From NCBI GenBank assembly GCA_025998755.1, contig AP024674.1, forward strand, positions 876,467-940,466: DNA of 64,000 nt. The letters are read 5' to 3'. The notes beneath the pieces are model-generated. The model saw nothing but the letters and a program-made list of their open reading frames with translations. It made no database searches and had not been told where the DNA came from. The stretch is from Armatimonadota bacterium (lineage in GTDB: Bacteria; Armatimonadota; UBA5829; DSUL01). Position numbers and translations under genes: made by a program. Of the stretch, positions 8,598 through 53,735 are shown in pieces; positions within the stretch are counted from its first letter, which is position 1; the number at the start of each line of letters is the position of its first letter.

Positions 8598-8670
8598 GGC
8601 TCTTGTCAGAGGACTCGGGCTGCAATTTGGCTAATAGAGGTTTCTGCCGAAAGGCGAAACGGAGGCGTGA

Positions 8671-9690: not shown

Positions 9691-9721
9691 TTCTTACCCC
9701 GTTCTTCGGAAAGGGTTCGCG

Positions 9722-11962: not shown

Positions 11963-12090
11963 TGCAGGTGGGCTCCAGAGGCGCGCCGATATGGTTGAAA
12001 GCTAGGGGCGGCCTCGACTATGATACACGGGCGCCTGCTGAAGGCGCCGTGCTTCTTCGACGCTCTTTCGCGGTGATTTTTCTCAGGCAT

Positions 12091-13993: not shown

Positions 13994-13994
13994 G

Positions 13995-15105: not shown

Positions 15106-15107
15106 CG

Positions 15108-16343: not shown

Positions 16344-16532
16344 CTGCCGCCGTGCCCCCCTCCTCTGGTGTGGCGCGGCCGGGAACTCCGGGATAACCTG
16401 CTTCTGTTGCAAGAAACAGCGACGCCGGGCCGTCTCATGGGCGGCAAAGGCTAAGCTCTACCCGAACATTAGCCATTTTCAACCGCCCCCGAACTCAACG
16501 GGCCGGTATCGAGGAACTGGCGCAGGAAGACT

Positions 16533-17959: not shown

Positions 17960-17963
<4 letters not shown>
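16533..17963 (+). CDS. sufB: Fe-S cluster assembly protein SufB
   Basis: 476-aa SufB-type sequence ([27 protein letters not shown] ... [29 protein letters not shown]). Confidence 0.9.
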
Positions 17964-18772
<809 letters not shown>

Positions 18773-18814
18773 AGCTGTCAACCCGGGTGCTGTCAAGAAA
18801 GGTGTCATCCGACA

Positions 18815-20158
18815 TTGCCAGGAACTGATTCAAGCGTCAAGCAGGATCTGTCCCCTCATCTGGAATGGCTGGAGAGCTTCCATCGCTCGTCCGGCCCCGT
18901 GGCTCCAGTCATCGCGGAGTTGCGGGGAAAGGGGCGCCGCGCCCTTGCGGAGAAGGGCTTCCCCACACGCCGGAATGAGGACTGGAAATACACAGACGTT
19001 TCCGGTCTGGCGCGTCGTGTCTTCCTGCCCGTCGCGAGCGGTCTGGGAAGGAAGCTGACGGAAGGAGAGATTTTCCCCTTCCTTTATGAGTCGCCGGAGT
19101 GGCCGCGGCTCGTCTTTGTGGATGGCAGGTTCGATCGGGAGCTTTCTTCTCTGCCCGGCGTCGTGCCGGGGCTCGTTGTGGCCAGTCTGGCGGAGGGGCT
19201 TGCCGGAGGATGCGGTAGCTTCGAGCGGTGCCTCGGGCAGCTTGCGCGCCCGGAGTTCAGCGGATTCACCGCCCAGAACAGCGCGGCTCTTCGCGAAGGA
19301 GCCTTCATCCGCGTAGCAGCCGGGGCGAAGGTGGAGCCGCCGTTGCATCTGCTCTTCCTTGCCACCCAGGAGGGCGCCGGAAGTTACCTTCGCAACCTGA
19401 TCATCGTGGAAGAGGGTGCGGCGGTCACGTTCGTGGAGACCTATGCCTCTCTGGAGTGCGGCGACTATTTCACGAATACAGTTTCAGAGATCTTTGCCGG
19501 GCGCGATGCCGTCGTGGACTGCTACAGGCTTCAGATGGAGTCCCCATCCGCGTTCCACGTGTCGCACGTGGAGGCGCATCAGGAGGAGGGAAGCCGGGTC
19601 TCCTTCACGACCGTCAACACTGGGGGCTTGCTCGTCCGCAATGATCTGAATGTTCTCTTGGCGGGTGAGCGCTGCGAGGCGACTCTAAATGGCCTCACCC
19701 TGGTGGATGGCGACCGCCACGTGGACAACCATACCGCCATTGACCACGCCAGTCCCAACTGCGAAAGCCATGAGCTGTACAAGGCGGTGCTCGACGGGCG
19801 CTCGCGCTCTGTCTTCAATGGCAAGATCTTCGTGCGCCCGGGCGCTCAGAAGACAGACGCCAAGCAGACCAACAGGAGTCTGATGCTCTCGCCTCTCGCG
19901 ACGGTTAACACCAAGCCGCAGCTTGAGATCTTCGCGGATGACGTGAAATGCACACACGGAGCGACCGTAGGGCAGCTGCGGGACGAGGAGATCTTTTACC
20001 TCCGCAGCCGCGGGATGAGCGAAGATACCGCCCGTCAACTATTGACTTACGGCTTCGCTAACGACATTGTGGAGAAGATTCGCGTGGAGCCTGTCCGGGC
20101 CTTCCTGGATCGCGTCCAAATGGCCACGCTGCACACATCGTTTGTTTCAGAGGGCTGA
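18815..20158 (+). CDS. sufD: Fe-S cluster assembly protein SufD
   Basis: SufD-type sequence (TRRNEDWKYTDVSGL, FVRPGAQKTDAKQTNRSLMLS, GATVGQLRDEEIFYLRSRGM) between sufC and sufS; TTG start approximate. Confidence 0.85.
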   Translation: MPGTDSSVKQDLSPHLEWLESFHRSSGPVAPVIAELRGKGRRALAEKGFPTRRNEDWKYTDVSGLARRVFLPVASGLGRKLTEGEIFPFLYESPEWPRLVFVDGRFDRELSSLPGVVPGLVVASLAEGLAGGCGSFERCLGQLARPEFSGFTAQNSAALREGAFIRVAAGAKVEPPLHLLFLATQEGAGSYLRNLIIVEEGAAVTFVETYASLECGDYFTNTVSEIFAGRDAVVDCYRLQMESPSAFHVSHVEAHQEEGSRVSFTTVNTGGLLVRNDLNVLLAGERCEATLNGLTLVDGDRHVDNHTAIDHASPNCESHELYKAVLDGRSRSVFNGKIFVRPGAQKTDAKQTNRSLMLSPLATVNTKPQLEIFADDVKCTHGATVGQLRDEEIFYLRSRGMSEDTARQLLTYGFANDIVEKIRVEPVRAFLDRVQMATLHTSFVSEG

Positions 20159-20161
20159 GAG

Positions 20162-21424
20162 ATGCCGCCGTCCACCGTTCAACAGGGTCTGCAGTTCCCG
20201 GCCACAGGGTTCGACGTCTACCGCACACGTCAGGAGTTTCCCATCCTGAACCAGTTCGTGCGCGGCAAGCCGTTGATCTATCTGGACAATGCGGCCACCA
20301 CCCAGAAGCCGAACACGGTGCTCTGCGGCCTGAACCAGTTCTACGGCTGCTGCAACTCGAATATTCACCGGGGTGTGCACTTCCTCAGCGAACTGGCCAC
20401 CCGTCAGTACGAGGACGCCCGTCTGAACGCGCAGACGTTTCTGAACGCCCGCTCTCACCGGGAGATCATCTTCGTGCGCGGCGCAACCGAGGGGATAAAC
20501 CTGGTCGCCTACAGCTACGGCCGGGCGTTTCTGAAGGAGGGGGATGAGATCATCATCTCCGCCATGGAGCACCATGCGAACATCGTTCCCTGGCAGGTGG
20601 TGTGCGAGCAGACGGGAGCCAGGTTGCGCGTCGTTCCCATCAACGATGATGGCGAATTCCTGATGGAGGAGTATGAGAAGCTCCTCAGCGAACGCACGAA
20701 GATTGTCAGCGTCGTGCATATTTCAAATGCCCTGGGCACGGTGAATCCGGTGAAGGAGATCGTGCGCAAAGCGCATGAGGCGGGGGCCGTGGCGCTGGTG
20801 GACGGAGCGCAGTCGGTGGCGCACATTCCGGTGGACGTTCAGGACCTGGAGTGCGATTTCTTCGTTTTCTCGGGACACAAGCTGTTCGGACCCACAGGAA
20901 TTGGCATTCTCTACGGCCGGGAATCCCTGCTGGAGCGCATGCCGCCCTATCAGACCGGGGGAGATATGATTCTGTCGGTCACCTTCGAGAAAACGGTTTA
21001 CAATGATCTGCCCTACAAGTTTGAGGCCGGCACCCCCAACATCGGAGGAGCAATTGCCCTTTCTCCCGCTCTGGACTTCGTCCGCAGCGTGGACCTGCGC
21101 AAGGTCGCTCCGTACGAGGACGCCCTGCTCAAGTATGCCACGGAAAGACTCCTGGAGATTCCCGGTCTGCGGATCATTGGCAACGCGCGAGAGAAAGCGG
21201 CGGTCATCTCCTTCGTCATGGACTGCGCGCATCCGCACGATATCGGGACCATTCTGGACAGCGAGGGTATCGCCATCCGCACCGGCCACCACTGCGCTCA
21301 GCCCGTGATGCAGCGTTTCGGCGTTCCGGCGACAGCAAGGGCGTCTTTTGCGCTGTATAATACGCCCGAGGACGTTGACGCTCTGGTGAAGGGGCTGCAG
21401 AAAGTGGTCGAGGTATTCGGTTAA
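20162..21424 (+). CDS. sufS: cysteine desulfurase SufS (class V aminotransferase)
   Basis: Motifs IYLDNAATTQKP, SGHKLFGPTGIGILYG, RTGHHCAQP. Confidence 0.9.
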   Translation: MPPSTVQQGLQFPATGFDVYRTRQEFPILNQFVRGKPLIYLDNAATTQKPNTVLCGLNQFYGCCNSNIHRGVHFLSELATRQYEDARLNAQTFLNARSHREIIFVRGATEGINLVAYSYGRAFLKEGDEIIISAMEHHANIVPWQVVCEQTGARLRVVPINDDGEFLMEEYEKLLSERTKIVSVVHISNALGTVNPVKEIVRKAHEAGAVALVDGAQSVAHIPVDVQDLECDFFVFSGHKLFGPTGIGILYGRESLLERMPPYQTGGDMILSVTFEKTVYNDLPYKFEAGTPNIGGAIALSPALDFVRSVDLRKVAPYEDALLKYATERLLEIPGLRIIGNAREKAAVISFVMDCAHPHDIGTILDSEGIAIRTGHHCAQPVMQRFGVPATARASFALYNTPEDVDALVKGLQKVVEVFG

Positions 21425-21867
21425 TGGCGGATTTGCGGGAGCTGTACCAGGAGGTCATTCTCGACCACAACAAGAGTCCCCGGAACTTCGGAAAGCTGGA
21501 AAGTCCCACGCACCAGGCCGAGGGTTACAATCCCCTTTGCGGGGACCACTACTGGGTGTATCTCACCGTCACCGACGGCGTTATCTCGGACATCGCGTTC
21601 GAAGGTTCCGGCTGTGCAATCTCCAAGGCTGCCGCATCCCTGATGACCTCTCTTCTGAAAGGTAAGCCTGTCTCCGATGCGGAAAAGCTTTTCGAGCGCT
21701 ATCGCGCTATGGTTACCGGGCAGGGTGGGGGCGACCCTGCAGAAATGGGCAGGCTTGTGGTTTTCTCTGAGGTCAAGAACTATCCAACCCGCATCAAGTG
21801 CGCCGTTCTTCCCTGGCATACGCTGCACGCGGCTCTCTCGGGCGAACAGACGGCCAGCACGGAGTAG
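21424..21867 (+). CDS. sufU: SUF system Fe-S scaffold/sulfur acceptor SufU (NifU-like)
   Basis: Motifs NPLCGDHYWVYL, FEGSGCAISKAAAS, KCAVLPWHTLHAAL; start overlaps sufS stop (TAATG). Confidence 0.85.
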   Translation: MADLRELYQEVILDHNKSPRNFGKLESPTHQAEGYNPLCGDHYWVYLTVTDGVISDIAFEGSGCAISKAAASLMTSLLKGKPVSDAEKLFERYRAMVTGQGGGDPAEMGRLVVFSEVKNYPTRIKCAVLPWHTLHAALSGEQTASTE

Positions 21868-40093: not shown

Positions 40094-40115
40094 GGTGTGG
40101 GAGCGCTCCCACACC
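40094..40115 (+). promoter_or_regulatory. perfect 22-bp palindrome, LacI-family operator candidate
   Basis: ggtgtgggagc|gctcccacacc; core GTGGGAGCGCTCCCAC resembles the symmetric lac operator TGTGAGCGCTCACA; half-site tgtgggagc repeated at 40117-40125; 30 nt upstream of the first gene of the locus. Confidence 0.45.
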
Positions 40116-40144: not shown

Positions 40145-42958
40145 ATGCTCCGTGCTACGGCCCCGGAAGCGATGTGGCGTATTCTGCTGGTCGCCATAGT
40201 GGCAGCAGCGCCGTGCGGACCTCTAGCCGCCGCACTGCTGGCGAATGCCGGGTTCGAGGCCGGAGACGGAGCCACGCCTCCAGATCCCCTTTACTGGACA
40301 GAGTACGGTCCGGACCTGACCGGCGAACGCTCTTCTGTCTTCAAGCGCTTGGGAGGATGGGCGGCAAAGCGTTGGACGGGCGGCGACCATCAGGAGTACG
40401 GATATTATCAGGACTTCCCGGCGATCCCGGGCAGAGAGTATCGTCTTGCCGCCTGGCTTCACAGCCCGCCCTCGGACGCGCTGTCTGGCTCCAGCTATGC
40501 GTGTCTGAAACTCGAGTTCCTGTCACCAGGCGGCGCGATGCTGCTCCAACGGGAGAGCCTCCGTCTCACCTCATCCAACGCTGGGTTCGAGGAGTATCTG
40601 GTCACAGCGGTGGCACCTCCGGGGGCCACAAAAGGTCGGGTGGTCTACGCTGTAGGCGCGGGTGCCGCACCGCACGGCGGTGCGGCCTACTGCGACGACG
40701 TCACGCTCGAAGATCTGGGACCGCTGCCCACATCCGACGACGCGTTGCTGGAAGAGCTCCAGAAAAGGGCCTTCCGTTTCTTCTGGGACGAGGCAGGGCC
40801 GCTGGGGCTCATTAAAGACCGGGCAGGCAACTTCCGGCAAGACCGATACCAGCACTCCAGCATCGCATCCGTGGGATTTGGGCTGGCGGCGATCTGCGTG
40901 GCCGAGGGGCGGGGCTGGGTGTCACGGGAGCAGGCTCGTCAGCGCATCGCGCTGACGCTGGATACCCTGGCTACGAAGGTTCCCAGGCAGCACGGATTCT
41001 TGCCCCATTTCCTGGATGCACGAACCGGGCAGCCATCCCCGGGAACGGAATACTCCGCCATTGATACGGCAATCCTGCTCTACGGAGCGCTGTTTGCCGG
41101 GTCCTGGTTCGAGGATCGATACGGAGACGCTTCCATTCGGGAGGCGGCTGAGGCTCTGTACCACGCAGTCCAATGGCCTGTTCTGCATTCGGGCAGCACC
41201 GTTTACAGCGAATACTGGATGATGGATCTGCTGGCCATCGGCTCGCCAACATATCCGCTCCCGCCCTCCGTGTGGAACGCGTTCAGCCGCAACTTCCAGG
41301 ACAATCTGGCCACGCGCCCGGCCGACCGGTCATATCCCAGGTTTTTCTACCCGGTGCTGTTTGTGCACCAGTATCCGCAGCTTTTCCTGGATATGCGGTT
41401 CCGGCGCGACGTCCATACTGTGGACTTGACCTATTTCGAGAGCACCCGGAACCACACTTTTTCGAACAGGCAGTACTGCATTGATCACTCCGTGTCCGCC
41501 GGGTTTGCGCATCCCCGCTTCCAGACCTACTCGGAGCATTGTTGGGGACTGACCGCCGGGGATGGCCCGGACGGATACCGGGACTATGGCGAGGCGCTTC
41601 CCTGGCTGCCGGAGCCGCAGAGCACCTGGCTTCTGGACGGGACCGTCCTGCCGCACGCCGCCGGTGGGTCTGTGGCCTTCGCTCCAGAGGTCTGTATCCC
41701 TGCGCTGCGCCGGATGGCGCAGACATATGGACACCGCATCTGGGGGCGTTACGGTTTTTCGGATGCCTTCAACGTGGACCGGAACTGGTGGGCGGAAGAT
41801 GTCATCGGTATAGACCTGGGCGCCATATTCCTGAGCATCGAGAACTATCGCAGTGGCGGCATCTGGCGGTGGACGATGCGAATCCCAGCCATCCGCCGCG
41901 CGCTGGCGCGGACGGGGTTCGTCGACGAGCGGCAGGCCGCGGTGGAGGATTTCGACTCCGCACCTCTTGGGGTCTGGGGATCCGGTTGCGAGAGCGATTG
42001 GGGAACGGGACACCTGTCATATGAGGAAATCGGGAGCACAGGCCAACTGCCAGGCGGCCGCGTTGCACGAATAACGGCGAGTGTGGCTGGAGGCGGAGCT
42101 GGAATCTGTCTTGGGTCGCTGGATTTGACCTACGCTGACGTCTTGAGCTTCTTCATCCGCGGGCAACGGGGTGGGGAGCGCATCACTCTGGTGCTGCGCG
42201 ATTGCGATGGACGGGAATCTGCCGTTGCGCTGACGGAGGAGCACCTATGGCAGCGCAGCATAGGCACGGACTGGCAGACTGTTTCTGTGCCGCTCAGCGC
42301 TTTCGACGGCATCCGCAGACCGTGCGCAGAGCGGCTGGCATTCCTGCTGCAGGAACCGGGGTCGGTCTGGGTTGACGGAGTGGCGTTCACCGGTGCGCAT
42401 CCAGATGCTCCGGCCGTGCCACTCCCCAGTCCCGGTTATGTGCGCAACCTTCCTCCCGGAGTATCTGTCACTCTCGAAAACCTTGTCGTAACGGACGACT
42501 TCGGAGCGTTTTTCTACGCCGCTCGGCCGGATCGCGCATCAGGAATACGCATTCAGCCGGGCGGCGGCTTCACGCCGGGGGAGCGCATTTCAGTCCGTGG
42601 AACCGTGGGGAGTGCAGATGAGGAGCCGGCGGTCTTCGCGACAGCGGTCTCCCGGCAGGGCAGGGTGTTGCCCCTTGAGCCGGTCGGGATGAAGTTGGCT
42701 GGTATAGGCAATAACCGCCCCGATCCCCTGGGACTGCGGGTTCGCTCCTGGGGTCAGGTGTCCGGTCTCGAACAGGATGGATTCCGTCTCCGGGACGGTT
42801 CCGGACGGGAGCTGGCGGTCGTCGCGCCCTCTCTTCCGAAGCCGGCTCCCGGAGCATTTGTCATTGTCACAGGTGTCGCGGGGCGCCGGGTTGCAGCGCA
42901 GGGTCCCCAACCGGTGCTGCGAATCCGGTCTCCGTGGGACATTGAGGTAGTGCAGTAG
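40145..42958 (+). CDS. secreted multi-domain glycoside hydrolase: N-terminal carbohydrate-binding module + (alpha/alpha)6 GH144/DUF3131-like catalytic domain (putative endo-beta-1,2-glucanase)
   Basis: Signal peptide (WRILLVAIVAAAPCGPLAAALLA); CBM4/9-like segment (NAGFEAGDG...YCDDVTLE); catalytic-domain motifs HGFLPHFLD and YGFSDAFNVDRNWWAEDVIGIDLGAIFLSIENYRSGG; ATG 40145 preceded by aaggagagg. Confidence 0.65.
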   Translation: MLRATAPEAMWRILLVAIVAAAPCGPLAAALLANAGFEAGDGATPPDPLYWTEYGPDLTGERSSVFKRLGGWAAKRWTGGDHQEYGYYQDFPAIPGREYRLAAWLHSPPSDALSGSSYACLKLEFLSPGGAMLLQRESLRLTSSNAGFEEYLVTAVAPPGATKGRVVYAVGAGAAPHGGAAYCDDVTLEDLGPLPTSDDALLEELQKRAFRFFWDEAGPLGLIKDRAGNFRQDRYQHSSIASVGFGLAAICVAEGRGWVSREQARQRIALTLDTLATKVPRQHGFLPHFLDARTGQPSPGTEYSAIDTAILLYGALFAGSWFEDRYGDASIREAAEALYHAVQWPVLHSGSTVYSEYWMMDLLAIGSPTYPLPPSVWNAFSRNFQDNLATRPADRSYPRFFYPVLFVHQYPQLFLDMRFRRDVHTVDLTYFESTRNHTFSNRQYCIDHSVSAGFAHPRFQTYSEHCWGLTAGDGPDGYRDYGEALPWLPEPQSTWLLDGTVLPHAAGGSVAFAPEVCIPALRRMAQTYGHRIWGRYGFSDAFNVDRNWWAEDVIGIDLGAIFLSIENYRSGGIWRWTMRIPAIRRALARTGFVDERQAAVEDFDSAPLGVWGSGCESDWGTGHLSYEEIGSTGQLPGGRVARITASVAGGGAGICLGSLDLTYADVLSFFIRGQRGGERITLVLRDCDGRESAVALTEEHLWQRSIGTDWQTVSVPLSAFDGIRRPCAERLAFLLQEPGSVWVDGVAFTGAHPDAPAVPLPSPGYVRNLPPGVSVTLENLVVTDDFGAFFYAARPDRASGIRIQPGGGFTPGERISVRGTVGSADEEPAVFATAVSRQGRVLPLEPVGMKLAGIGNNRPDPLGLRVRSWGQVSGLEQDGFRLRDGSGRELAVVAPSLPKPAPGAFVIVTGVAGRRVAAQGPQPVLRIRSPWDIEVVQ

Positions 42959-43014: not shown

Positions 43015-44695
43015 ATGAGGAGCTGCAAAGGGCTTATCTGGATGACGCTGCTGGCGCTGGCAGTCTCCCTGCCTGCGGCGGCTGAGAATCTGTTGCTGAA
43101 CCCCAGCTTCGAAGTGGATCCGGTGGAAGACGGGCTGGCGGCCGGCTGGGCGAAGTATCGCTCTGGCGATGGCATTGATGGCTGGCTGAAGCCGTGGTCC
43201 GGCCCGGAGAACGACTGGGTGGCTGTCATTGGCCAATGGCAGCCCGGGCAGTGGGCGTTCTGGGGACAGAGTGCGCCCTGCGTTCCCGGCCGGATCGTCA
43301 CCTTCCGGGCCTGGAGCGGCGGCTTCCCCGGGTTCAACGGCTCCACGAAGGTGAAGCTGGAGTTCTACTATCCGAACCAGGAAGGGGGCACGATGGCCAT
43401 CTCCACGCCGGAGAGCTCATCCATCACGGGACCGCACGGGTGGCGTTTGCAGGAGGTGTCCGTGGTGGTCCCTCCACAGGCCATCCGGGTGCGCGCGATG
43501 CTCTGGGTGGACGGAGCTCCATCAGCACCGGCCAGCGGAAGCGCCAAGTTCGATGACGCCTGGCTGGAGACAGACGGGATCCCGCCGCGAGTGACTCCCG
43601 GCGAGGTCAACGGGCTCCCGGACAACACTCTGGTATGGCTGAAGTGGCCGGTTGTGGTGAAGGACAACGGAAGCGACGAAACCCGCACCGACTGCTACGT
43701 GACGGGATACGGCCGCGAGGGTACCTGCAGGGTGGTATCGTCGAATCCCATTCTCAGCAACGGGGGTACCGGTTGCGGTCCGACCGGGTGTTATGCTCCA
43801 CGTGCTTGGCACCGTTCAAACGGTGAACGGCGAAAAACGCGTGAACGCCATAGACATCGTTCCCACCAACTGGGACGGGCCGTGGCCCAGGCAGATCGGC
43901 ATGACATCCAAGTCCATGGCACTCCCACCGAACCCGTCCGGGCAGATTGTCCGGCTCGTCGGAAACGTCAGCAGCACGACTCCCGACAAGAGCTTTGTCT
44001 ATGTGGATGACGGGGCGAACGTGCCGGGCGAGGCTGGGTACACCGGTGTCAGGGTTCCCTATCCGGGCAGTCCAGATGACTATCCGGCCATCGGAGACAC
44101 AGTCGCAGCTACCGGTGTGCTTTGGCTGGAGCCAGGAGCTGGCGGACAGCGTTATCCCGTTCTGTATACCCGCCGCGCCACGGATTTCAGCATCATCAAC
44201 ATTGGCAGCGGGGGCATCGGGCGCAACCTCCTGCTGAATCCCGGCTTCGAAGAAGGTCCTGCGAACTGGGAGCGATCACCTCAGAGCGTGGCCCCGGAGC
44301 GCTGGGCGGCCCGTTCCGGAAGCTGGGGCATGGCGTTCTACGCGTGGGATACCTACGAGCAGGTCTTTGTCGGCCAGAGGGTGCGCAACATCGTGCCCGG
44401 AGCCTCTTACTCCTTCAGCGCCTACATCCTGAAGGAGGTCAACCACGTGGGCAACGTGGTTATGGAGGTTCACTGGTTCGATGCGGACGGTAACGAGATT
44501 CTCCCTGCGGTAGAAGTCCCTGCCGCCGCGGGCACCACTTGGCAGCAGTTCACTGTACCGGTTGTCGCCCCGGCCGGGGCCGCCGAGGGGAGTTTCGTAA
44601 TCCGGAACGTGGATCACGAACCTGCTCCGCCGCCCGGGCAGCTTCAGGCAGTGATGATTGACGACGTGGTGGTGAAGATGACCGCCACGCCCTGA
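43015..44695 (+). CDS. secreted protein with two CBM4/9-like carbohydrate-binding modules (apparent frameshift at G5 run 43762-43766)
   Basis: Signal peptide (LIWMTLLALAVSLPAAA); NLLLNPSFEVDPVEDG and NLLLNPGFEEGPANWE module starts; reading frame changes near cgggggtacc. ORF track shows 42961..44010 and 43793..44695. Confidence 0.5.
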
Positions 44696-44863
44696 TCAGT
44701 GTTGGAAAAGCTTCGGGAAGCGCGCCGTGGTCAGCTACAACGTTCGCGGCGCGCCTCCCGGGAAGATCGGCGAGTTATTCGCCGGAACAGCAGAAGCAGA
44801 CCTTCCGGAGCGTTGCAGCGCTCAGGGAGCTGCAAGTCTCAACGAGACAAGGAGGAAAGACAG

Positions 44864-45628
44864 ATGGGTAAGTGGTTCTGGCTCTGCTCGCTGGCACTGG
44901 TCCTTGGTGTCAGTTGCGCGGCGAACGCTTACGGGCCGGTCAGCTCCATTGATTCGGCCAAGGTCTATCAGTACGTGTGGCAGGACGATCCGGACTCCAC
45001 TCTGACGGTGGTGAACAACTATCCGTCCTATATCAGCTTCCGCGATGAGAACCTGGACGGCGACGGTCAGGGCGGGGAGTATGCCAACCGGCACGTCTGG
45101 AGGTTCTCCGCGGACGGTGGGTCAACTCCTTTCGAGTTCGGCAACACCACCTATTTCGAGTACTTCGTGGACGTGAAGGTGCAGGGCGACCCCACGACGG
45201 GGAAGCATCACGAAGCGGGCATCTTCTTCGACTATCGAGGCTGGGACGGCGTTCTGATGGTGAAGACCAACGGAGAGATCGCCGCCTTCGGCTATGTCCT
45301 TCCGTTTTATGCCTTCTTGGATCCGTACACCCCCGGCGACTGGATCCGTATCGGGGTGAAGTATTTCCAGGATCCCGGAGACGGCAAGAACAAGATCCGG
45401 TATTACGCGGGCTCCGCGCAGAGCCCCGCTCTGGCATTCGGAAACCTGGAGGGGGGCATCATTGACGGAACGACCATCGGGGGCTACGGACAGTTCCAGA
45501 TCGCTCCCGGGGTCCAGTCCAACTTCGGCATGGCGGAGTGGGGCAACATTCACATTGTGCCGGAACCGGCGTCGCTTCTGGTGCTGGCCGCCGGCGTGGC
45601 AGGCATGGCCCTGCGCCGCAGGCGCTAG
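44864..45628 (+). CDS. PEP-CTERM sorting domain protein (exosortase substrate)
   Basis: Signal peptide (WFWLCSLALVLGVSCAANA) and C-terminal VPEPASLLVLAAGVAGMALRRRR (PEP motif, TM helix, Arg cluster); aaggagg RBS. Confidence 0.7.
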   Translation: MGKWFWLCSLALVLGVSCAANAYGPVSSIDSAKVYQYVWQDDPDSTLTVVNNYPSYISFRDENLDGDGQGGEYANRHVWRFSADGGSTPFEFGNTTYFEYFVDVKVQGDPTTGKHHEAGIFFDYRGWDGVLMVKTNGEIAAFGYVLPFYAFLDPYTPGDWIRIGVKYFQDPGDGKNKIRYYAGSAQSPALAFGNLEGGIIDGTTIGGYGQFQIAPGVQSNFGMAEWGNIHIVPEPASLLVLAAGVAGMALRRRR

Positions 45629-45793
45629 TGCTCCGGCAGGGGGGACGGCCGGTCCCGTCCGACCGTCCCTCCTGAACGCCCGGCGCCGTTCAGGAATGCC
45701 GCCACTGCTCCACGACCGCCCCTGCGAAGCTGAGACGCCTCTGGCAACCGTCCGGGATGAGGACGGTTGCAGATCACAGGCGGAGGCTCAACA

Positions 45794-46483
45794 ATGAACC
45801 GCAAGGCATTCACGCTTATTGAACTGCTGGTGGTGATCGCCATCATCGCGATCCTGGCTGCCATCCTGTTCCCGGTTTTCACCCGGGCCCGAGAGAGCAG
45901 CAAAAGGTCGGCCTGTCTGTCCAACTGCAAGCAGCTCGCTTCTGCAATGCAGATGTACATTGATGACTGGAAAGGCCGCTTCCCGTCGTTCACGTATAGT
46001 GAGCAGTGGAAGCAGCTGGAGCCGCAGAATATCGTCTCCTACACAAAGAGCGAAGATGTCTTTCACTGCCCTGGCGCTACGGATATCAATAGCGCCCGGG
46101 TTCCGCCGCGAAACGCCAGCGAAAACTGGAAGAACTACTTCGGCCGGAATATGGGCAGCCCGGCTCAGTGGAAGTGGACGGACTACAAGATGATGGACAA
46201 CGGGTATCTGCCAGGAATGAGCGCCTCTGAAGTGCGCTCGCCCGTGTGGCTGGTGGTCTGTATTGACAACACGGACTGGTGGCCGCGGCATCCACGAGGC
46301 ACGGCTGCGAAAAATTACAACGATGGAGGGAGCAATCTGGCGTTCCTGGACGGACACGCGGCGTATTTTCCGAAGGAACGCTACAACGACGGCAACAAGC
46401 GATCCGGTCCCGATGTGGACGACGCAGGAGCCACTCCTTTCTGGAACTGGGGGCTTCCCCGGGATTACTGGATTCCGGAATGA
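45794..46483 (+). CDS. prepilin-type N-terminal cleavage/methylation domain protein (DUF1559-like)
   Basis: N-terminus [29 protein letters not shown]; C-terminal [15 protein letters not shown] (H-X9-DG-like); ggagg RBS. Confidence 0.8.
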
Positions 46484-47772
46484 TCCCTGTGCTGTTGGCA
46501 TTGATGCTCGCGGGAACCGCCGCGGCGGGAGGCGAGCTGCGAGATGACCGCAGCTACCTGATCCAGGTTGCTCGCGAGACGTGGCGCTACTTTGAAGAGT
46601 GCCGCGACCCGGTATCCGGCCTGGTCTGGGATCACTGCGGGGAGACTGGCGCTGAAGGTCGGGGAGAGTATACCAGCCCCACGAATATCGCCCTAGACCT
46701 CACCTCGACGCTTGCGGCGATGGACCTCGGCATCATCACGCGGCAGCAGGCACAGGAGCGCATCGAAACGATTGTCGGCACACTTCAAAAGCTGGATCGG
46801 TACCGGGGGTTTTTCTTCAATTTTTATGAAACTGCCACGCTGAAGCCGACAGTACGCTTCCTTTCTTTTGTGGACAACGGCTGGCTGACCCTGGCGCTTC
46901 TGGCCGTCCGGCAGGAGTTTCCGGGAGATATGGGGGAGCGGGCCACCGCCATATTGAACAGCCAGGACTATGCATTCTTTTATGACCGGAAGGCCGGTTT
47001 GATGTATCACGGGTTCCATACGGATCGCAGGGGGATCCGCTACGGCCACTATGCTATCTTTTGCTCCGAACCCCGGGCGGCATCGCTTCTGGCCATCTCT
47101 CGCGGCGATGTGCCGGTGGAGCACTGGTTCCGGATGGAGAGAGCGCGTCCGGCCGAGGGGAAGGATTACAGGAAAGGAGAGATGCGCCGTTACTGCGGCG
47201 TCGACGTCCAGGAGAGCTACTTCGTCTACCGCGGTGTGCCCGTTGTGCCCAGCTGGGGCGGAAGCATGTTCGAGTTTTTGATGCCATCCCTGTTCATTGA
47301 CGAGTCCAGGTATGCGCGCACCAGTCTGGCCGAAAACAATCGCCGCGCCGTAGATGCGCAGATTGCGTTTGCCGCGGAGAGGGGAATGCCTGCCTGGGGA
47401 CTGTCGCCGTGCGCCAATCCGGCTGGCGGATATGGAGAGTACGGCGCTGCACCCATCGGGGTACAGGGGTATGCAGAGGGCGTAGTGACCCCGCACGCCT
47501 CGTTTCTGGCACTGGAGATCCGCCCTGCAGAGTCGCTGGCCAACATCCGGAAAATGGAACAGCTGTATGCCATCCGTGGTCACTACGGGTTCCGGGACTC
47601 TGTGGACACGTCTTCCGGCCGGGTAGCCAGTGTGTATCTGGCGCTTGACCAGGGCATGATCCTCACCGCCATCGGCAACTATCTGACGGGCGGCTCGATC
47701 CGCCGGCGCGTTATGCGGGATCCATCCATGAAGAAGGCTACCAGGATTCTTGCAATGGAGCGCTTTTTCTGA
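46480..47772 (+). CDS. secreted GH144/DUF3131-like (alpha/alpha)6 glycoside hydrolase, second copy
   Basis: Signal peptide ([18 protein letters not shown]); motifs SFVDNGWL and YGFRDSVD...[21 protein letters not shown] paralogous to the 40145..42958 catalytic domain; start overlaps upstream stop (ATGA). Confidence 0.65.
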
Positions 47773-47791: not shown

Positions 47792-48853
47792 GTGGCTGCT
47801 TCCAGAACACCACCGAACATCTTCGACGTGGCCCGTCGGGCGGGGGTTTCCAAGTCCACGGTTTCGCGCGTTCTGAACGGGTCGGATCGCGTGAGCGAAG
47901 CCTCCCGACAGGCGGTTCTCCGGGCAATGGAAGACCTCGGCTTTCGGCCGAACAGCGCCGCCAGGCGTCTTGCAGGCTCGGCGGACCGGCGCATTGGTCT
48001 GTTGCTGCCTTTTTTCGGAAGCATGTTCTCATCCTTTTACGTGTATGAGATCATCCGTGGGGTGGGTCAGGTGGTTTCGGAACGCGATACGGAACTGCTG
48101 CTCCATTTTCAGCACGAAGACCGCAATGGACATAACCTCCGGCGGCGTTTGACAGCCAATGGTGCGCTTGGCGGATGGGTCATCGCAGATGAAATGGTGG
48201 ACGACGGGCTACTGGAAGAGGTTCGCGAGGCTGGAATCCCCTTTGTGTTGCTGAACAGAGAGTCCTCCGTTCCGTGGTCTTCCTGGGCCACAGTGGATAA
48301 CCGGGGCGCCGCAGAGGCAGTTGTGGAATATCTCGTTTCTCTCGGACACACGTTTATCGCCACGCTGACTGGTCCGCTTCACCAGCCTCCCGCCCGGGAG
48401 CGCCTGGAAGGCTTCCAAGCGGCGATGGCTGCGCGGGGTCTTGAGGTTCCGGATGGTTGGGTGGCCCGCTGCGACTTTCAGCGGCAGCTGGCAGCGGAAG
48501 AGACAGTCAGAATGCTTCGAGAACGTCCCCGTCCGACGGCTATCTTTGCGGCGTCGGACCTGATGGCCGCCGGCGCATATGAGGCTGCCTCGTCGCTTGG
48601 GTTGCGGATCCCGGAGGATCTCTCGGTGGTGGGCTTCGACGACGACTTCATTGCGGCTCAGTTGATTCCCCGCCTGACTACGGTCCGCCAGCCCCTCCAG
48701 GATGCGGCGCGGGCGGCCACATCCTGGTTGCTGGATCATCTGGAAGAAAGAAACGGACAACCGCTACGTGTGAGATTGCCGGCTTTTCTGGTGGAACGCG
48801 ACTCCTGTGCGCCGCCCTCCCGGGCGGACAACAGCAAGGGGAGCAGACCATGA
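47792..48853 (+). CDS. LacI-family transcriptional regulator
   Basis: N-terminal HTH NIFDVARRAGVSKSTVSRVLNG plus periplasmic-binding-like sugar-binding domain; GTG 47792 chosen, TTG 47750 possible. Confidence 0.8.
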   Translation: MAASRTPPNIFDVARRAGVSKSTVSRVLNGSDRVSEASRQAVLRAMEDLGFRPNSAARRLAGSADRRIGLLLPFFGSMFSSFYVYEIIRGVGQVVSERDTELLLHFQHEDRNGHNLRRRLTANGALGGWVIADEMVDDGLLEEVREAGIPFVLLNRESSVPWSSWATVDNRGAAEAVVEYLVSLGHTFIATLTGPLHQPPARERLEGFQAAMAARGLEVPDGWVARCDFQRQLAAEETVRMLRERPRPTAIFAASDLMAAGAYEAASSLGLRIPEDLSVVGFDDDFIAAQLIPRLTTVRQPLQDAARAATSWLLDHLEERNGQPLRVRLPAFLVERDSCAPPSRADNSKGSRP

Positions 48854-51243
48854 ACGCCGCGGTCGCGGGGAGGTTGAGTGCAGCCGGGCGGACCCGCTTC
48901 GGTCATTTCTCGGAAGACGGCAGGGAATTCGTCATCCGCCGGCCAGACACTCCGCGGCCCTGGGTGAACGTTCTGTGCAACGACGATCCGGGATACGGGT
49001 GCATTTGGAGCCAGGCGGGAGGTGGTTATAGCTGGCTGGTCAACGCGGAGTTGAACCGGATCACCTTCTGGCAGCAGGACCTGATCCGGGATGACCGTGG
49101 GCGTTTTATCTATCTGCAGGATGCCCGGACCGGCGAGCTCTGGTCGGCCGGGTACCAGCCTGTCCGGCGGAAGCCCGAAGCCTTCGAATGCCGCCATGGG
49201 GCGGGCTACTCCGTCCTTAGCTCCCAGAACTCGGGCGTTCTCAGCCGGTTGACGGTCTTTGTGCCGCCGGCAGCGCCGCTGGAGGTCTGGCTGCTGGAGG
49301 TTGCAAACTTCTCGGGAGCCCCGCGCGATATCCTGGTTACCAGCTATCTGGAATGGTGCCTGGGCACAGCGCACGACACTCACCGGGAGTTCCATCGCAT
49401 CTTCATAGAAACGGAGTTCATCCGAGAACGCAGCGCCATCTTGGCGCGCAAGCGTCTGTGGGCCATCCCAAACGCCCTGGGCCAGGGATGGAACCGCAAC
49501 TGGGAGGGAACGGCATTTCACGCTTGCTCCCTACCCGTCGCCGCGTTCGAGTGCGACCGGGAGGTGTTTGTCGGGAGATACGGTTCTCTGGAATCGCCTG
49601 CCGCTTTGACTAACGGGCGGATGGCGGGGACCAGCGGACGATGGGGGGATCCCATCGCATCCCTTCAGGCCCCCCTCCGCTTGGGACCGGGTGAGTCGGC
49701 GGAGTTGGTCTTCGTTCTGGGCGCAGCCAATAGCGACGCAGTTGCGTTGTCTCTGGCGGAGCAGTACTGCAACGTCAAGCGTGCGGCCGAGGCGCTCCGC
49801 GAAACTCAGCTATGGTGGAGAAACCGTCTGGATGGCTACTCGGCCGAGACCCCGGACCCGGGACTGAATGCTCTGCTTAATACTTGGCTCCGCTATCAGG
49901 CCATGGCGGGGCGCCTCTGGGGGCGCAGCGGATACTATCAACCGGGCGGGGCATACGGCTTCCGTGATCAGCTACAAGACAGCCTGGTCTTCCTGCCGAC
50001 AGAGCCGGATCGGACCCGCCGTCAGATCCTGCTGCACGCGGCACACCAGTTCTCTGCCGGGCACGTGTTCCACTGGTGGCAGCCGATCGCCGAGTCCGGC
50101 GCGCACAGCAGGTTTTCAGACGATCTCCTCTGGCTACCGTTTGCGGTGCTGGCCTATATCCGGGAGACCGGCGACACGGCCATCCTGAATTTTCAAGCGC
50201 CTTTTGTGGACGGCCCTTCGGATACCATCCGGAACCACTGCGAGCGCGCGCTCGATCTGGCCCTGTCCCGAAGGAGTCCCCGTGGCCTGCCGCTCATGGG
50301 CGAGGGGGACTGGAACGATGGCCTTTCGGCGGTCGGCTGGGAGGGTAAAGGCGAATCGGTATGGGTGGGACATTTTCTGTGCTATCTCCTTCCGCGCTGG
50401 GCGGAGCTGGCCAGGACCGTGGGTGACGGCGAGCGCGCGGCACAGTACCTGCAGGCGGCCCAAGACCTGCAGGCTGCCATCAACAGGTGGGCCTGGGACG
50501 GCCAGTGGTATTTCCGGGCGACCTGCGACGATGGGACGGTGATCGGCGGCAGTGCGTGCAATGAAGGCCAGATATTCCTGAACGCTCAAACATGGTCGAT
50601 CATCGCCGGGGTCTGCCCTCCCGAGCGCCGTAGGCAACTTATGCGGACGGTCCGGGACCGGCTCTATACGGCAGCCGGGCCGGTGCTGCTCCGTCCGGCA
50701 TACACCGTGCCGGATGAACGGATTGGATACCTCACCCGTTACGCTCCCGGGGTGCGGGAGAACGGGGGTGTGTATCTCCACGCGGCAACGTGGGCGATCT
50801 GGGCCGAGTGCCTGCTCGGCCGCGCAGAGCAAGCCTGGAGACTTGTTCAGAGCATCTCTCCTTGCATTCGTGCACTGGACGCTGAACTGTACCGCGCCGA
50901 GCCATACGTAACGCCCGGGAACATCGATGGCCCGGACTCGCCGCACTTCGGGCGCGGGGGGTGGACGTGGTACACCGGATCGGCCGCCTGGCTGTTCCGG
51001 GTGGTTGCGGAGTGGTTGCTGGGAGTCCGTCCCGCCAGGGAAGGACTGCGAGTTGCCCCCTGCATCCCTGAGGACTGGGACGGTTTTCGGGTGTACCGTC
51101 GCTTCCGTGGAGCGGGCTACCAGATCGCTGTTTCCAGAAATGGTGAGGGGGGGAAGCTTATGGTGGACGGCCGCCCTGTTGCAGGGGACATTGTGCCAGC
51201 ATTCCACGACGGGAAAGACCATCAGGTCGAACTCCTGTTGTAG
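48850..51243 (+). CDS. glycoside hydrolase family 94 phosphorylase (cellobiose/oligoglucan phosphorylase type)
   Basis: N-terminus FGHFSEDGREFVIRRPDTPRPWVNVLCND typical of GH94; 797 aa; start overlaps LacI stop. Confidence 0.8.
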   Translation: MNAAVAGRLSAAGRTRFGHFSEDGREFVIRRPDTPRPWVNVLCNDDPGYGCIWSQAGGGYSWLVNAELNRITFWQQDLIRDDRGRFIYLQDARTGELWSAGYQPVRRKPEAFECRHGAGYSVLSSQNSGVLSRLTVFVPPAAPLEVWLLEVANFSGAPRDILVTSYLEWCLGTAHDTHREFHRIFIETEFIRERSAILARKRLWAIPNALGQGWNRNWEGTAFHACSLPVAAFECDREVFVGRYGSLESPAALTNGRMAGTSGRWGDPIASLQAPLRLGPGESAELVFVLGAANSDAVALSLAEQYCNVKRAAEALRETQLWWRNRLDGYSAETPDPGLNALLNTWLRYQAMAGRLWGRSGYYQPGGAYGFRDQLQDSLVFLPTEPDRTRRQILLHAAHQFSAGHVFHWWQPIAESGAHSRFSDDLLWLPFAVLAYIRETGDTAILNFQAPFVDGPSDTIRNHCERALDLALSRRSPRGLPLMGEGDWNDGLSAVGWEGKGESVWVGHFLCYLLPRWAELARTVGDGERAAQYLQAAQDLQAAINRWAWDGQWYFRATCDDGTVIGGSACNEGQIFLNAQTWSIIAGVCPPERRRQLMRTVRDRLYTAAGPVLLRPAYTVPDERIGYLTRYAPGVRENGGVYLHAATWAIWAECLLGRAEQAWRLVQSISPCIRALDAELYRAEPYVTPGNIDGPDSPHFGRGGWTWYTGSAAWLFRVVAEWLLGVRPAREGLRVAPCIPEDWDGFRVYRRFRGAGYQIAVSRNGEGGKLMVDGRPVAGDIVPAFHDGKDHQVELLL

Positions 51244-51318: not shown

Positions 51319-51376
51319 CTCGCCGCCGGCTGCGGCCCAAAGGCTGCGATTGAGACCGGGAGGAGAAGGGGCTGAA

Positions 51377-52075
51377 ATGAACCTTAAGACTGCGAAGCGC
51401 GCAGGGCTGAGCCTGGCGCTGCTCATCCTCGTATGCGAAGCTGCTGTGGCATACAGCATCGTGAACGTGCCCACTGCCAACCAGGCGGCTTTGCGGGAAG
51501 TTAACCTTGCCTACTACAGCATGTCTGTGGACAGGCTGCCGGTCACGCACAAGGACATCATCATTATCTACTCCACGGTAGCGCCGAACCTCGAGGTGGA
51601 GTACTTCCACATCAATATCAACAAGGGGGCTCCCTCGCAGAATCTGGTGAACGCCAGCTACAGGTTGGTGAGCGAAACGGCGCAGATCCCGGACGTAGTG
51701 GTGGGCGCCAAGAATATCTTCGAGGACGACCACTCGCCCAATCCCGATGAGCAGAAGCGCTCCTATTACATCGCCACCGCAAAGACCCTGAACCCGCCGA
51801 AGCCGGGAGCCGCCTGGCAGCCCGTGGTGCGTCTGCACGTGAACTACGGCACCCGGGAGCACAGGGGACTGTTCGGTGGTGTCCAGATCGCGGTCACGCC
51901 GCAGCTGGGGATCGCGGCAATGAAGTTCTCCAGCTCACCCTATGTGGACACCTTTTTCGGCAACTCGATGGAATATGCCGTCGTTTACTCGCTCGGGAAA
52001 GGGCGTCCCACGCTGAAGGCGGGCACTCTGGGCCGCCACGAATGGGTGGGACTGGATTACAGCATCTTCTTCTGA
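51377..52075 (+). CDS. hypothetical exported protein, possible outer-membrane beta-barrel
   Basis: Signal peptide (LSLALLILVCEAAVA), alternating beta-strand-like pattern, C-terminal aromatic residues (YSIFF). Confidence 0.5.
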   Translation: MNLKTAKRAGLSLALLILVCEAAVAYSIVNVPTANQAALREVNLAYYSMSVDRLPVTHKDIIIIYSTVAPNLEVEYFHININKGAPSQNLVNASYRLVSETAQIPDVVVGAKNIFEDDHSPNPDEQKRSYYIATAKTLNPPKPGAAWQPVVRLHVNYGTREHRGLFGGVQIAVTPQLGIAAMKFSSSPYVDTFFGNSMEYAVVYSLGKGRPTLKAGTLGRHEWVGLDYSIFF

Positions 52076-52172: not shown

Positions 52173-53735
52173 GTGAGTTGTCCGGACTTGCGCATTGCGG
52201 CGGCTTTGCTGATCGCCGCAGCAGTTCCCGTGGTTCTCCCGCTACCAGTGACGGCTGACGTGAGGACCGCGGCGCTGTTCTCCGACGGGGCCGTGCTTCA
52301 GAGGCAGCGGCCCGTTCCGGTGTGGGGATGGGGCGACGAGGGTGAGAATGTTACCGTCCACTTCAACGGACAGCAAAAATCAACAACCGTCCGGGGAGGC
52401 AGGTGGATGGTTCGGCTGGATCCGATGGAGGCGGGAGGTCCGTTTACCCTTACGATTCGCGGCCGCAACACCGTGGAAGTGCGGGATGTGCTGGTGGGCG
52501 AGGTCTGGGTGTGCAGCGGGCAGTCGAACATGCAGTGGCCCATGAAGCTGTCTGACATGCCGGAGCCGGATACCATCCAGAAGTCCGCAGACCCGCAAAT
52601 GCGCCTGTTTACCGTGCCTCGGCGCGCAGCGGACACGCCGCAGTCCGATGTGCAGTCGCGTTGGGAACCTTGCGATCCCTCCACGGTGCCAGATTTCTCT
52701 GCCGTTGGCTATTTCTTCGGACGAATGTTGAGAAAAGAGCTTGGTGTGCCGGTTGGCCTTATAAGTACTAACTACGGGGGCACCCCTGCCCAGGCGTGGA
52801 CAAGTTGTCCGGTGCTTCGGTTCGATCCGCTTCTCCGCAACCTGCTGGAACGCCAAGAGAAGGCTGTCGCCGAATATCCTGCCAGGCTGGCCGAGTGGCG
52901 CAGGGTGATGGATGCGCATCGGCAGGAGGTGGAGAAGGCCCGACAGGAGGGCCGCGAGCCCCCGCGTCCGCCCGCTCAGCCGCAGAATCCGGCAGAGTCT
53001 CCGCAGAGGCCCTGTGGTCTTTACAACGCGATGATCGCACCCCTCATCCCCTATGCCATCCGGGGCGTCATTTGGTATCAGGGCGAATCCAACGCGGGAG
53101 AAGCGTGGCTGTACCGCAGGCTGTTTCCGGCGATGATCCGCAACTGGCGCGCCAACTGGGGACAGGGAGACTTTCCGTTCCTGTTCGTGCAACTTGCTCC
53201 CTATACCAAGATCAAGCCGGAGCCCGGCGACAGTAAATGGGCGGAGCTCCGGGAGGCCCAGCTTCTGACCGCTCTAAACGTGCCGAACACGGCGATGGCG
53301 GTCATCACGGATCTTGGTGACGAGGACGATATTCATCCTAAGCGCAAGGCGCCCGTCGGAGAGCGACTGGCCCTCGCCGCGCTTGCGAAGGCTTACGGGC
53401 GGAACGTGGAGTATTCCGGGCCCGTATACCGGACAATGCAGACCGAAGGAAGCCGCGTGCGGCTAAGTTTCGACCACGCGGAGGGGGGCCTAGTGGTCCA
53501 CGGTGACCGCCTGACCGGGTTTACCATCGCCGGAGCGGACGGTCGCTTTGTGAATGCGCAAGCGCGTGTGGAAGGCAACCAGGTCATCGTGTGGAGCCCA
53601 CAGGTCCCCAGACCGGCCGCCGTGCGCTTCGGGTGGGCGGATTATCCTGTTGTGAATCTCTACAACAGGGCCGGTCTTCCCGCCTCACCGTTCCGGACGG
53701 ATGACTTCTTGATGGTGACTGGGCCGCGCAGCTAG
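52173..53735 (+). CDS. sialate O-acetylesterase-like carbohydrate esterase (SASA domain)
   Basis: Signal peptide; motifs LFSDGAVLQRQRPVPVWGWG, WVCSGQSNMQWPM, VIWYQGESNAGEAW. Confidence 0.75.
   Translation: MSCPDLRIAAALLIAAAVPVVLPLPVTADVRTAALFSDGAVLQRQRPVPVWGWGDEGENVTVHFNGQQKSTTVRGGRWMVRLDPMEAGGPFTLTIRGRNTVEVRDVLVGEVWVCSGQSNMQWPMKLSDMPEPDTIQKSADPQMRLFTVPRRAADTPQSDVQSRWEPCDPSTVPDFSAVGYFFGRMLRKELGVPVGLISTNYGGTPAQAWTSCPVLRFDPLLRNLLERQEKAVAEYPARLAEWRRVMDAHRQEVEKARQEGREPPRPPAQPQNPAESPQRPCGLYNAMIAPLIPYAIRGVIWYQGESNAGEAWLYRRLFPAMIRNWRANWGQGDFPFLFVQLAPYTKIKPEPGDSKWAELREAQLLTALNVPNTAMAVITDLGDEDDIHPKRKAPVGERLALAALAKAYGRNVEYSGPVYRTMQTEGSRVRLSFDHAEGGLVVHGDRLTGFTIAGADGRFVNAQARVEGNQVIVWSPQVPRPAAVRFGWADYPVVNLYNRAGLPASPFRTDDFLMVTGPRS

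Follow-up and report, generated by a model that had tools for sequence, protein, structure and literature searches.

A pilin-like gene coupled to an enzyme gene in a probable beta-1,2-glucan utilisation locus of an Armatimonadota bacterium

Introduction

Polysaccharide utilisation loci of Bacteroidota are regulator-controlled, substrate-specific gene sets in which enzymes are encoded together with non-catalytic, envelope-anchored glycan-binding proteins of the SusD/E/F type. Here we analyse a stretch of 64,000 nucleotides (nt), hereafter the window, from an uncultured hot-spring bacterium of the poorly known phylum Armatimonadota (GenBank assembly GCA_025998755.1, contig AP024674.1, positions 876,467 to 940,466 of the forward strand; 61.5% G+C), and focus on a gene for a pilin-like protein of 229 amino acids (aa) whose stop codon overlaps the start codon of a gene for a 430-aa enzyme of the beta-1,2-glucanase clan. 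With somewhat less than even confidence, we favour the reading that this pilin-like gene belongs to the core of a LacI-controlled beta-1,2-glucan cluster, in which it is co-regulated and co-translated, and that its product is a non-catalytic partner that binds the glycan or docks the enzyme. Non-catalytic accessory proteins of this kind are already known from glycan utilisation loci, and what is new here is a pilin-type one. Compared with the Bacteroidota loci, the cluster has no SusC/SusD pair, and anchoring would be provided by a prepilin helix and a PEP-CTERM protein, not by lipidation.

Several described groups of pilin-type proteins share features with the window protein. Type IV pilins and the major pseudopilins of type II secretion (PilA, GspG/EpsG) have the same class III signal peptide with Phe at +1 and Glu at +5, a hydrophobic helix and a small alpha/beta head; the window protein differs in being an orphan encoded in a catabolic operon rather than beside assembly genes, and in its divergent head, Ala at −1 and two family-invariant cysteines. 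The DUF1559/H-X9-DG proteins of Planctomycetota and relatives have the same N-terminus and form a homologous family, whereas the window protein is shorter (229 aa against about 300–380 aa), has lost the His of the C-terminal motif, carries a tail of its own, scores below the cut-offs of both family profiles and is tied to a defined substrate locus. In the Sulfolobus bindosome, sugar-related proteins reach the envelope through the prepilin pathway and serve nutrient uptake (PMC4371748); its subunits, however, are archaeal, full-size substrate-binding proteins with an acquired pilin signal, whereas the window protein is bacterial, pilin-sized and predicted to be pilin-folded. Pilin-type proteins have also been linked to polysaccharide use in Gram-positive fibre degraders: xylan induces the Caldicellulosiruptor pilin CbPilA, which binds both this polymer and cellulose (bioRxiv 10.1101/614800), and pilin-like proteins (CbpC) are implicated in the adherence of Ruminococcus albus (PMC4300822). 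These are major pilins of pil loci, unlike the window pilin, whose gene lies inside an enzyme operon and is translationally coupled there.

Known beta-1,2-glucan systems resemble the window cluster in pairing an enzyme of the PF10091 clan with a GH94 phosphorylase, but the cluster differs from them in encoding no transporter, and the literature on these systems that we examined mentions no pilin-like component. Relative to cyclic glucan synthase, the GH189-like and GH94-like parts are here separate exported and cytoplasmic proteins with no synthase domain, so that modules fused in the synthase appear to exist also as separate catabolic proteins. Our literature searches returned analogies only, and in none did we find pilin-like genes described as part of an Armatimonadota glycan operon; the main text of the Fervidibacter paper does not discuss prepilins. 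The locus matters because a probable beta-1,2-glucan utilisation locus is described for a poorly known phylum, and one orthogroup of the very large DUF1559-type family is found locked into an operon with a predictable substrate, a specific enzyme and a recognisable LacI operator, which makes the function of this family directly testable.

The pilin–enzyme junction is conserved

The junction comprises the following features, with positions counted from the first letter of the window.

45782 to 45786, plus strand: Shine-Dalgarno motif of the pilin-like gene, GGAGG, read from the sequence
45794 to 46483, plus strand: pilin-like gene, 229 aa, with a class III (prepilin) signal peptide, a long N-terminal helix, an aromatic-rich divergent head and a degenerate H-X9-DG end
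46480 to 46483, plus strand: ATGA stop/start overlap (predicted translational coupling), with the TGA of the pilin-like gene (46481 to 46483) over the ATG of the enzyme gene (46480 to 46482)
46480 to 47772, plus strand: gene for the 430-aa enzyme of the beta-1,2-glucanase clan, closest solved relative GH189, without the GH189-specific insertion

An earlier interpretation of this DNA, made from the letters and their open reading frames without database searches (the sequence-only reading), had pointed to the ATGA overlap, which is present in the window and recurs in orthologues. Among the loci fetched for comparison (numbered L; proteins are numbered P), the junction reads ATGA or GTGA in L001, L002/L019, L008, L016 and L017 as in the window, an identical 4-nt overlap is seen by coordinates in L095–L098, and in all four metagenome orthologues the pilin gene ends on the start of the enzyme gene; the sole exception is L005, with a spacer of 2–5 nt. 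The overlap, kept as ATGA or GTGA across orthologues, is not a product of chance. The Shine-Dalgarno motif of the pilin-like gene is kept as GGCGGAGGC in close orthologues, and reading the sequence before the enzyme ATG revealed no clear motif of this kind.

The pilin-like gene is real and under purifying selection, since its comparison with L001 shows 90 synonymous against 12 non-synonymous codon differences, with 97 of the 111 base differences at codon position 3. An exact look-up of its product gave no record. Close orthologues share 95, 81, 68, 67, 64 and 52% identity with the product, after which identity falls sharply to at most 38%, and below this drop lies a family of thousands of Armatimonadota DUF1559-type proteins. 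In species-representative genomes an orthologue occurs on only four contigs, the remaining matches being paralogues or true pilins. One further contig, the 1,119-bp JAKORQ010000261.1 (L018), is binned as Planctomycetota and carries a pilin gene 98% identical to that of the window; it is probably a mis-binned Armatimonadota fragment.

Pairing, gene order and junction are kept in all the orthologous loci that were found (pilin identity 52–98%) while the flanks of the cluster differ, and this comparison of sequences supports the view that the pilin-like and enzyme genes are indeed functionally linked. The sequence-only reading is upheld to that extent, and the cluster carries a conserved LacI-type operator. 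We regard it as highly improbable that the gene is a passenger, without a role in glucan use and placed in the operon by an accident of genome compaction. Its paralogues do occupy many unrelated contexts, but the pairing and the junction persist to 52% identity while the flanks change, and the orthogroup has invariant residues of its own and a unique conserved C-terminal tail.

The pilin-like protein is a divergent relative of the DUF1559 family

The prepilin-type N-terminus claimed by the sequence-only reading is confirmed by two profiles. Read from the sequence, the protein begins with MNRKA and has a predicted cleavage site after the Ala (KA|FTLIELLVV). Both profiles of the prepilin cleavage/methylation motif (G/A|F-x-x-x-E, then a hydrophobic stretch) score above their cut-offs, PF07963 N_methyl with 34.1 bits (against 21.2) and TIGR02532 with 31.5 bits (against 16.3). 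The two family labels given to the rest of the protein hold only in a looser sense. DUF1559 (PF07596) reaches 22.4 bits against a cut-off of 23.3 and aligns residues 31–69 only, of a profile of 268 positions, yet relatives at 35–44% identity carry PF07596, and the protein is therefore best placed as a divergent DUF1559 relative and not as a scored member. The H-X9-DG motif (TIGR04294) likewise scores 14.6 bits against a cut-off of 19 (control P0016, 23.8 bits); its His is replaced by Asn here and by Leu in the orthologues P0003, P0005 and P0006, so that it is lost in the whole orthogroup, while the DG-H part is retained. On these sequence comparisons we place the protein as a divergent relative of both the DUF1559 and the H-X9-DG families.

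The N-terminal region also resembles GspG (TIGR01710, E = 9e-9, 35 bits against a cut-off of 88.85), and this resemblance is one argument for the function first suggested for the gene, namely that its product serves a type II secretion-like system as its dedicated pseudopilin and drives the enzyme or enzymes encoded with it through the outer membrane. Several exported proteins of the cluster must cross the envelope, and the co-translation with an exported enzyme would also fit. Against this function, a scan of 30 window genes found no gsp genes, the 430-aa enzyme has a signal-like N-terminus of its own, and the presence of a single paralogue at each sugar-regulated locus speaks for substrate specificity more than for a piston. 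To our knowledge, type II secretion pseudopilins are encoded with their own machinery and not one per substrate operon. We consider a secretion role quite unlikely.

An AlphaFold2 model (pLDDT 81, pTM 0.79) shows a helix over residues 8–58 followed by a small alpha/beta head. As modelled, the helix of about 50 residues packs on an antiparallel sheet in the lollipop fold that defines the type IV pilin superfamily. A sequence search of the PDB gave matches confined to the N-terminal helix. C41 and C92 are invariant across the family, one of the two lying within the long helix. The head contains 5.6% Trp, and eight aromatic residues (W112, F116, W152, W162, Y197, F216, W217 and W219) are invariant within the orthogroup and unconserved in the wider family; a conserved C-terminal tail of 14 residues is likewise specific to the orthogroup.

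The periplasmic-binding-protein fold implied by the Pfam name SBP_bac_10 was ruled out by the model, which is pilin-like. The function behind that name would make the protein a periplasmic solute-binding protein that hands sophoro-oligosaccharides to an inner-membrane transporter encoded elsewhere. Such a role could draw on the solute-binding label that Pfam gives to PF07596 (PMC2754498), on the linkage of the family to LacI regulators and on the combination of a cytoplasmic GH94 enzyme with no transporter or binding protein in the cluster. It sits poorly with the modelled pilin fold, with a head of only about 170 aa and with the lack of a transporter nearby, and is in our judgement improbable.

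The enzyme lacks the N-terminal extension of its distant homologues

The 430-aa enzyme matches PF10091 'Glycoamylase' (83 bits) as well as DUF3131, and begins with a short hydrophobic, signal-like segment. Its sequence is 100% identical to a protein of an Armatimonadota metagenome-assembled genome (KatS3mg024). It had been described as GH144-like, a loose label that is right at the level of the PF10091 clan: its best solved relative is the GH189 domain 8wy1 (E = 1.7e-44, 155 bits), far closer than the GH144 founder CpSGL (5gzh; E = 6e-13, 51 bits only). Residues 146–159 of the enzyme bridge residues 138–315 of the 8wy1 chain, so that about 175 residues are absent, corresponding to the GH189-specific insertion (PMC12102758). 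The absence of this insertion points toward the neighbouring family GH193 (Group 2), near which the sequence probably places the enzyme.

Homologues of the enzyme at no more than 46% identity, from Omnitrophota, Gammaproteobacteria and other groups (loci L099–L114), are 650–750 aa long and have no adjacent pilin gene. Their additional N-terminal ~250 residues begin with a lipobox or a signal peptide. In four homologues whose extension we examined (P0129, P0148, P0166 and P0184), that of P0148 matches the carbohydrate-binding module (CBM) family CBM30 above the cut-off (34.4 bits) and is also CBM_11-like, that of P0166 gives a weak CBM match, and in the other two no module was detected. The pattern is one of complementarity: an enzyme with its own anchor and binding module has no pilin, and a bare catalytic domain is accompanied by a pilin-like protein made just before it. 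From these gene structures we infer that the pilin-like protein may act as a partner in trans, and complementarity is the main argument for such a partnership.

The cluster is a probable beta-1,2-glucan utilisation locus

The remaining parts of the cluster are as follows.

40096 to 40113, no strand assigned: perfect palindrome of 18 bp with central CG, TGTGGGAGCGCTCCCACA, which heads the cluster as a candidate LacI-type operator
40145 to 42958, plus strand: large secreted enzyme, about 937 aa, with a GH144-type domain (residues ~212–610 of a 953-aa open reading frame, ORF) and CBM-like flanking regions
43015 to 44695, plus strand: frameshifted (near 43748–43761) counterpart of a conserved protein of 559 aa made up of two CBM-like halves (LLLNPSFE / LLLNPGFE)
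44861 to 45628, plus strand: 255-aa PEP-CTERM (exosortase-sorted) surface protein (PF07589, 26.5 bits, cut-off 20.7; TIGR02595, 22 bits, cut-off 16)
47792 to 48853, plus strand: LacI-family transcriptional regulator (PF00356, PF13377 and PF00532), starting 19 nt past the enzyme stop
48850 to 51243, plus strand: cytoplasmic GH94 glycoside phosphorylase, 797 aa (PF17167, 382 bits; PF06165, 260 bits)

The same-strand order of LacI-type operator, large GH144 enzyme, 559-aa protein, PEP-CTERM protein, pilin-like protein, 430-aa enzyme, LacI and GH94 is conserved, and the cluster is kept in every orthologous locus long enough to display it (L001–L008 and L019). The PEP-CTERM protein occurs in most orthologous clusters and is absent in L005. 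Order and junction persist to 52% pilin identity, and the genes on either side differ between lineages; the cluster thus moves as one unit.

The cluster encodes two members of the SGL clan (PF10091), namely the large GH144 protein and the 430-aa enzyme, and the characterised active members of this clan are all specific for beta-1,2-glucan (PMC12102758). Residues 212–610 of the large enzyme belong to GH144 by their matches in the PDB (4gl3, 6e-49; XcSGL, 8xul, 6e-48; CpSGL, 5gzh, 1e-35), and its orthologues of about 920 aa carry PF10091 and a weak CBM30. The GH94 protein is without a signal peptide, and cellobiose phosphorylases are its next-ranked matches (3e-141). With two clan enzymes, the specificity of that clan and a signal-less GH94 enzyme, the best reading of the cluster from family knowledge is that it is probably a catabolic beta-1,2-glucan utilisation locus. 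In the window, as in the orthologous loci, the cluster combines the cytoplasmic GH94 enzyme with no transporter or solute-binding protein.

The palindrome at the head of the cluster is preceded by a promoter-like stretch and followed by the ribosome-binding site and start codon (ATG, 40145) of the large-enzyme gene, the first of the cluster; a GGAGAGGG motif stands before this ATG. A GTG at 40097 falls within the operator and is therefore a spurious start, the real start being the ATG at 40145. The palindrome is unique in the window at up to 3 mismatches. Among the 117 fetched loci, its core, TGGGAGCGCTCCCA, is confined to 8, each an orthologous cluster with the site 60–240 nt upstream of the large GH144 gene; it is conserved there in every orthologous cluster and absent from the other 109 loci. 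The palindrome resembles the symmetric lac operator. The cluster has the makings of a LacI-regulated catabolic operon, with a repressor gene and a conserved palindromic operator upstream of the first gene, and this placement makes the palindrome the likely binding site of the cluster's own LacI repressor. The LacI stop overlaps the GH94 start by 4 nt (48850–48853), a second translational coupling in the cluster by sequence, so that the regulator would be made from an operon presumably under its own control.

The 559-aa protein gives weak matches to CBM_4_9 and NTTRR-F1 and is intact in L001, L002, L005 and L008. In a tblastn search of the window with the intact L001 protein, residues 1–249 align in one frame and residues 245–559 in another; the frameshift may have arisen in sequencing or assembly, or the gene may be a true pseudogene. 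The closest contig, L016 (90% identical), is masked at this spot.

Beyond the GH94 gene, the window encodes a protein of 241 aa (51350–52075) that has a signal-like N-terminus and matches no Pfam family, and then a SASA-type carbohydrate esterase (52173–53735). These two genes adjoin the cluster only in its closest relatives (L001 and L117).

DUF1559-like genes are linked to LacI regulators across Armatimonadota

DUF1559-type proteins are the largest paralogue group in Planctopirus limnophila, with 68 copies of which two are essential (PMC10632474), and Rhodopirellula baltica has 74 copies of the family (PMC2754498). In the searchable literature we found no function assigned to DUF1559 (PMC10632474, PMC2754498) and nothing on H-X9-DG. 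We surveyed 36 Armatimonadota loci with DUF1559-like genes and 17 loci of Planctomycetota and other phyla. In Armatimonadota the genes are scattered and mostly single, with a second copy in few loci.

Of the 36 Armatimonadota loci, 9 have a LacI-family gene immediately upstream in the same orientation and one has it immediately downstream, as against none of 442 other positions; once related loci are collapsed, 6 of 29 independent clusters show this adjacency (Fisher p = 7e-6). The upstream cases are LacI-/GntR-type regulators in L023, L034, L042, L062, L071, L073, L075, L077 and L083 (at ~8600–10010 in each) and the downstream case is in L056 (11089–12117). The 17 loci of Planctomycetota and other phyla showed no LacI adjacency. 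A Pfam scan of neighbouring genes, called by a crude ORF and GC3 heuristic, agrees, with Peripla_BP_3 in 10 of 63 immediate neighbours of DUF1559-like genes and no LacI-type family among those listed for 51 control genes at least 6 kb away.

The sequence-only reading had suggested that the pilin-like protein may link a pilus or secretion-like apparatus to export or display of the enzyme, and had named scattered DUF1559 genes without enrichment near secreted enzymes as the finding that would speak against it. Scattered they are, and carbohydrate-active enzyme genes are frequent neighbours at a rate not clearly above the local background, while LacI regulators are strongly enriched. In some cases the gene after a paralogue encodes a CBM_4_9, alpha-galactosidase-like, GH94 or DUF4838 protein; enzyme genes are common among the controls too, so that a general enrichment beside secreted enzymes is not shown. 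The family-wide link is to sugar-responsive regulation and not clearly to enzymes. In a Fimbriimonadaceae metagenome-assembled genome (L058, 9953–13711), a DUF1559-like gene is followed by one small ORF and then by a GH94 phosphorylase gene (494 bits).

Across 119 family members, N-terminal residues 6–25 are invariant while the heads share about 35% identity. Combined with the distribution of the paralogues, which are mostly orphans, one per locus and tightly linked to LacI regulators, this pattern could reflect a modular glycan-capturing fibre, a bacterial counterpart of the bindosome, in which sugar-inducible subunits with a shared helix and varied heads are assembled by one type IV pilus-like machine and bring beta-1,2-glucan to the envelope. 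The bindosome (PMC4371748) and CbPilA (10.1101/614800) are precedents. The invariance of the helix is inflated, however, by the word-based search with which the family was collected, no assembly machinery was found among the 30 window genes scanned and fibres in Armatimonadota are without evidence, and a fibre alone does not explain the stop/start coupling to one particular enzyme. On balance we think such a fibre unlikely. A broader speculation, which we also rate as doubtful, is that a bacterial bindosome operates in Armatimonadota, and perhaps also in Planctomycetota and relatives, with dozens of sugar-inducible, LacI-controlled pilin-like paralogues that combine a shared helix with glycan-specific heads and are served by one filament machine. 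If it were true, a modular fibre would capture polysaccharides or dock matching enzymes, the window locus would be its beta-1,2-glucan-specific module, and the DUF1559 family would have its first assigned function.

A proposed role for the pilin-like protein

Under the reading that we favour, of a non-catalytic partner encoded within a beta-1,2-glucan cluster, a prepilin peptidase would cleave the pilin-like protein, which would then be anchored by its N-terminal helix, either in the inner membrane or within a short pseudopilus, while the aromatic-rich head would face the periplasm or lie on the cell surface. There it would serve the 430-aa enzyme in trans, either by holding beta-1,2-glucan or sophoro-oligosaccharides or by docking the enzyme. 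The related enzymes of other phyla appear to do likewise in cis, through a lipid anchor or signal peptide and a CBM11/30-like module. The large GH144 enzyme, together with the CBM-like and PEP-CTERM surface proteins, would capture and cut glucan outside the cell, the 430-aa enzyme would trim it in the envelope, and the cytoplasmic GH94 enzyme would phosphorolyse the resulting oligosaccharides, whose presence would cause LacI to leave its operator. The surface display suggested by the sequence-only reading is plausible in this scheme, as is docking.

Several observations weigh against this role. The binding or docking function of the head is a prediction only. A Foldseek search of the PDB with the model gave no significant match, and the head is unlike any known CBM. 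The cluster already contains other candidate binding proteins, namely the 559-aa and PEP-CTERM proteins. The argument from complementarity is weakened by the N-terminal extensions of the homologues, in which a CBM is above threshold in only one of the four examined. The residue at −1 is the non-canonical Ala, shared with 33 of the 119 family members (Gly in the other 86), and in the scan of 30 window genes neither a prepilin peptidase nor any machinery of a type IV pilus or of type II secretion was found. The near-invariance of the 22-residue N-terminal helix, itself in part a bias of the word-based search, suggests filament assembly over a simple anchor. At the level of the family, the Pfam scan gave no clear excess of glycoside hydrolases in the 63 immediate neighbours over the 51 genes at least 6 kb away, and other paralogues lie beside RND efflux or TIR/AAA_35 (defence-like) genes.

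Downstream of the LacI–pilin pair of L062, at 12022–16774, genes for AAA_35 + WD40 and TIR_2 + AAA_35 proteins look like an anti-phage defence module.

Other features of the window

Scans of the cluster for sigma-70 promoters and intrinsic terminators did no better than expected from shuffled sequence and were uninformative. The spacer of 165 nt ahead of the pilin-like gene contains two hairpins, neither of which resembles the operator, and no operator copy.

45637 to 45674, plus strand: GC-rich hairpin (inverted repeat I1) directly after the PEP-CTERM stop, without a U-tract, its stem kept by compensatory changes in L016 and L001
45744 to 45770, plus strand: perfect 10-bp inverted repeat, GCAACCGTCC-N7-GGACGGTTGC, upstream of the ribosome-binding site of the pilin-like gene, without a U-tract

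The 10-bp repeat is unique in the window, does not arise in shuffled sequences and is partly kept as GCAGCCG...CGGCTGC in L096 and L001. Elsewhere in the window, a sugar ABC-type binding protein (Peripla_BP_4, 229 bits) is encoded at 8671–9690 and a suf iron-sulfur cluster assembly operon occupies 16533–21867.

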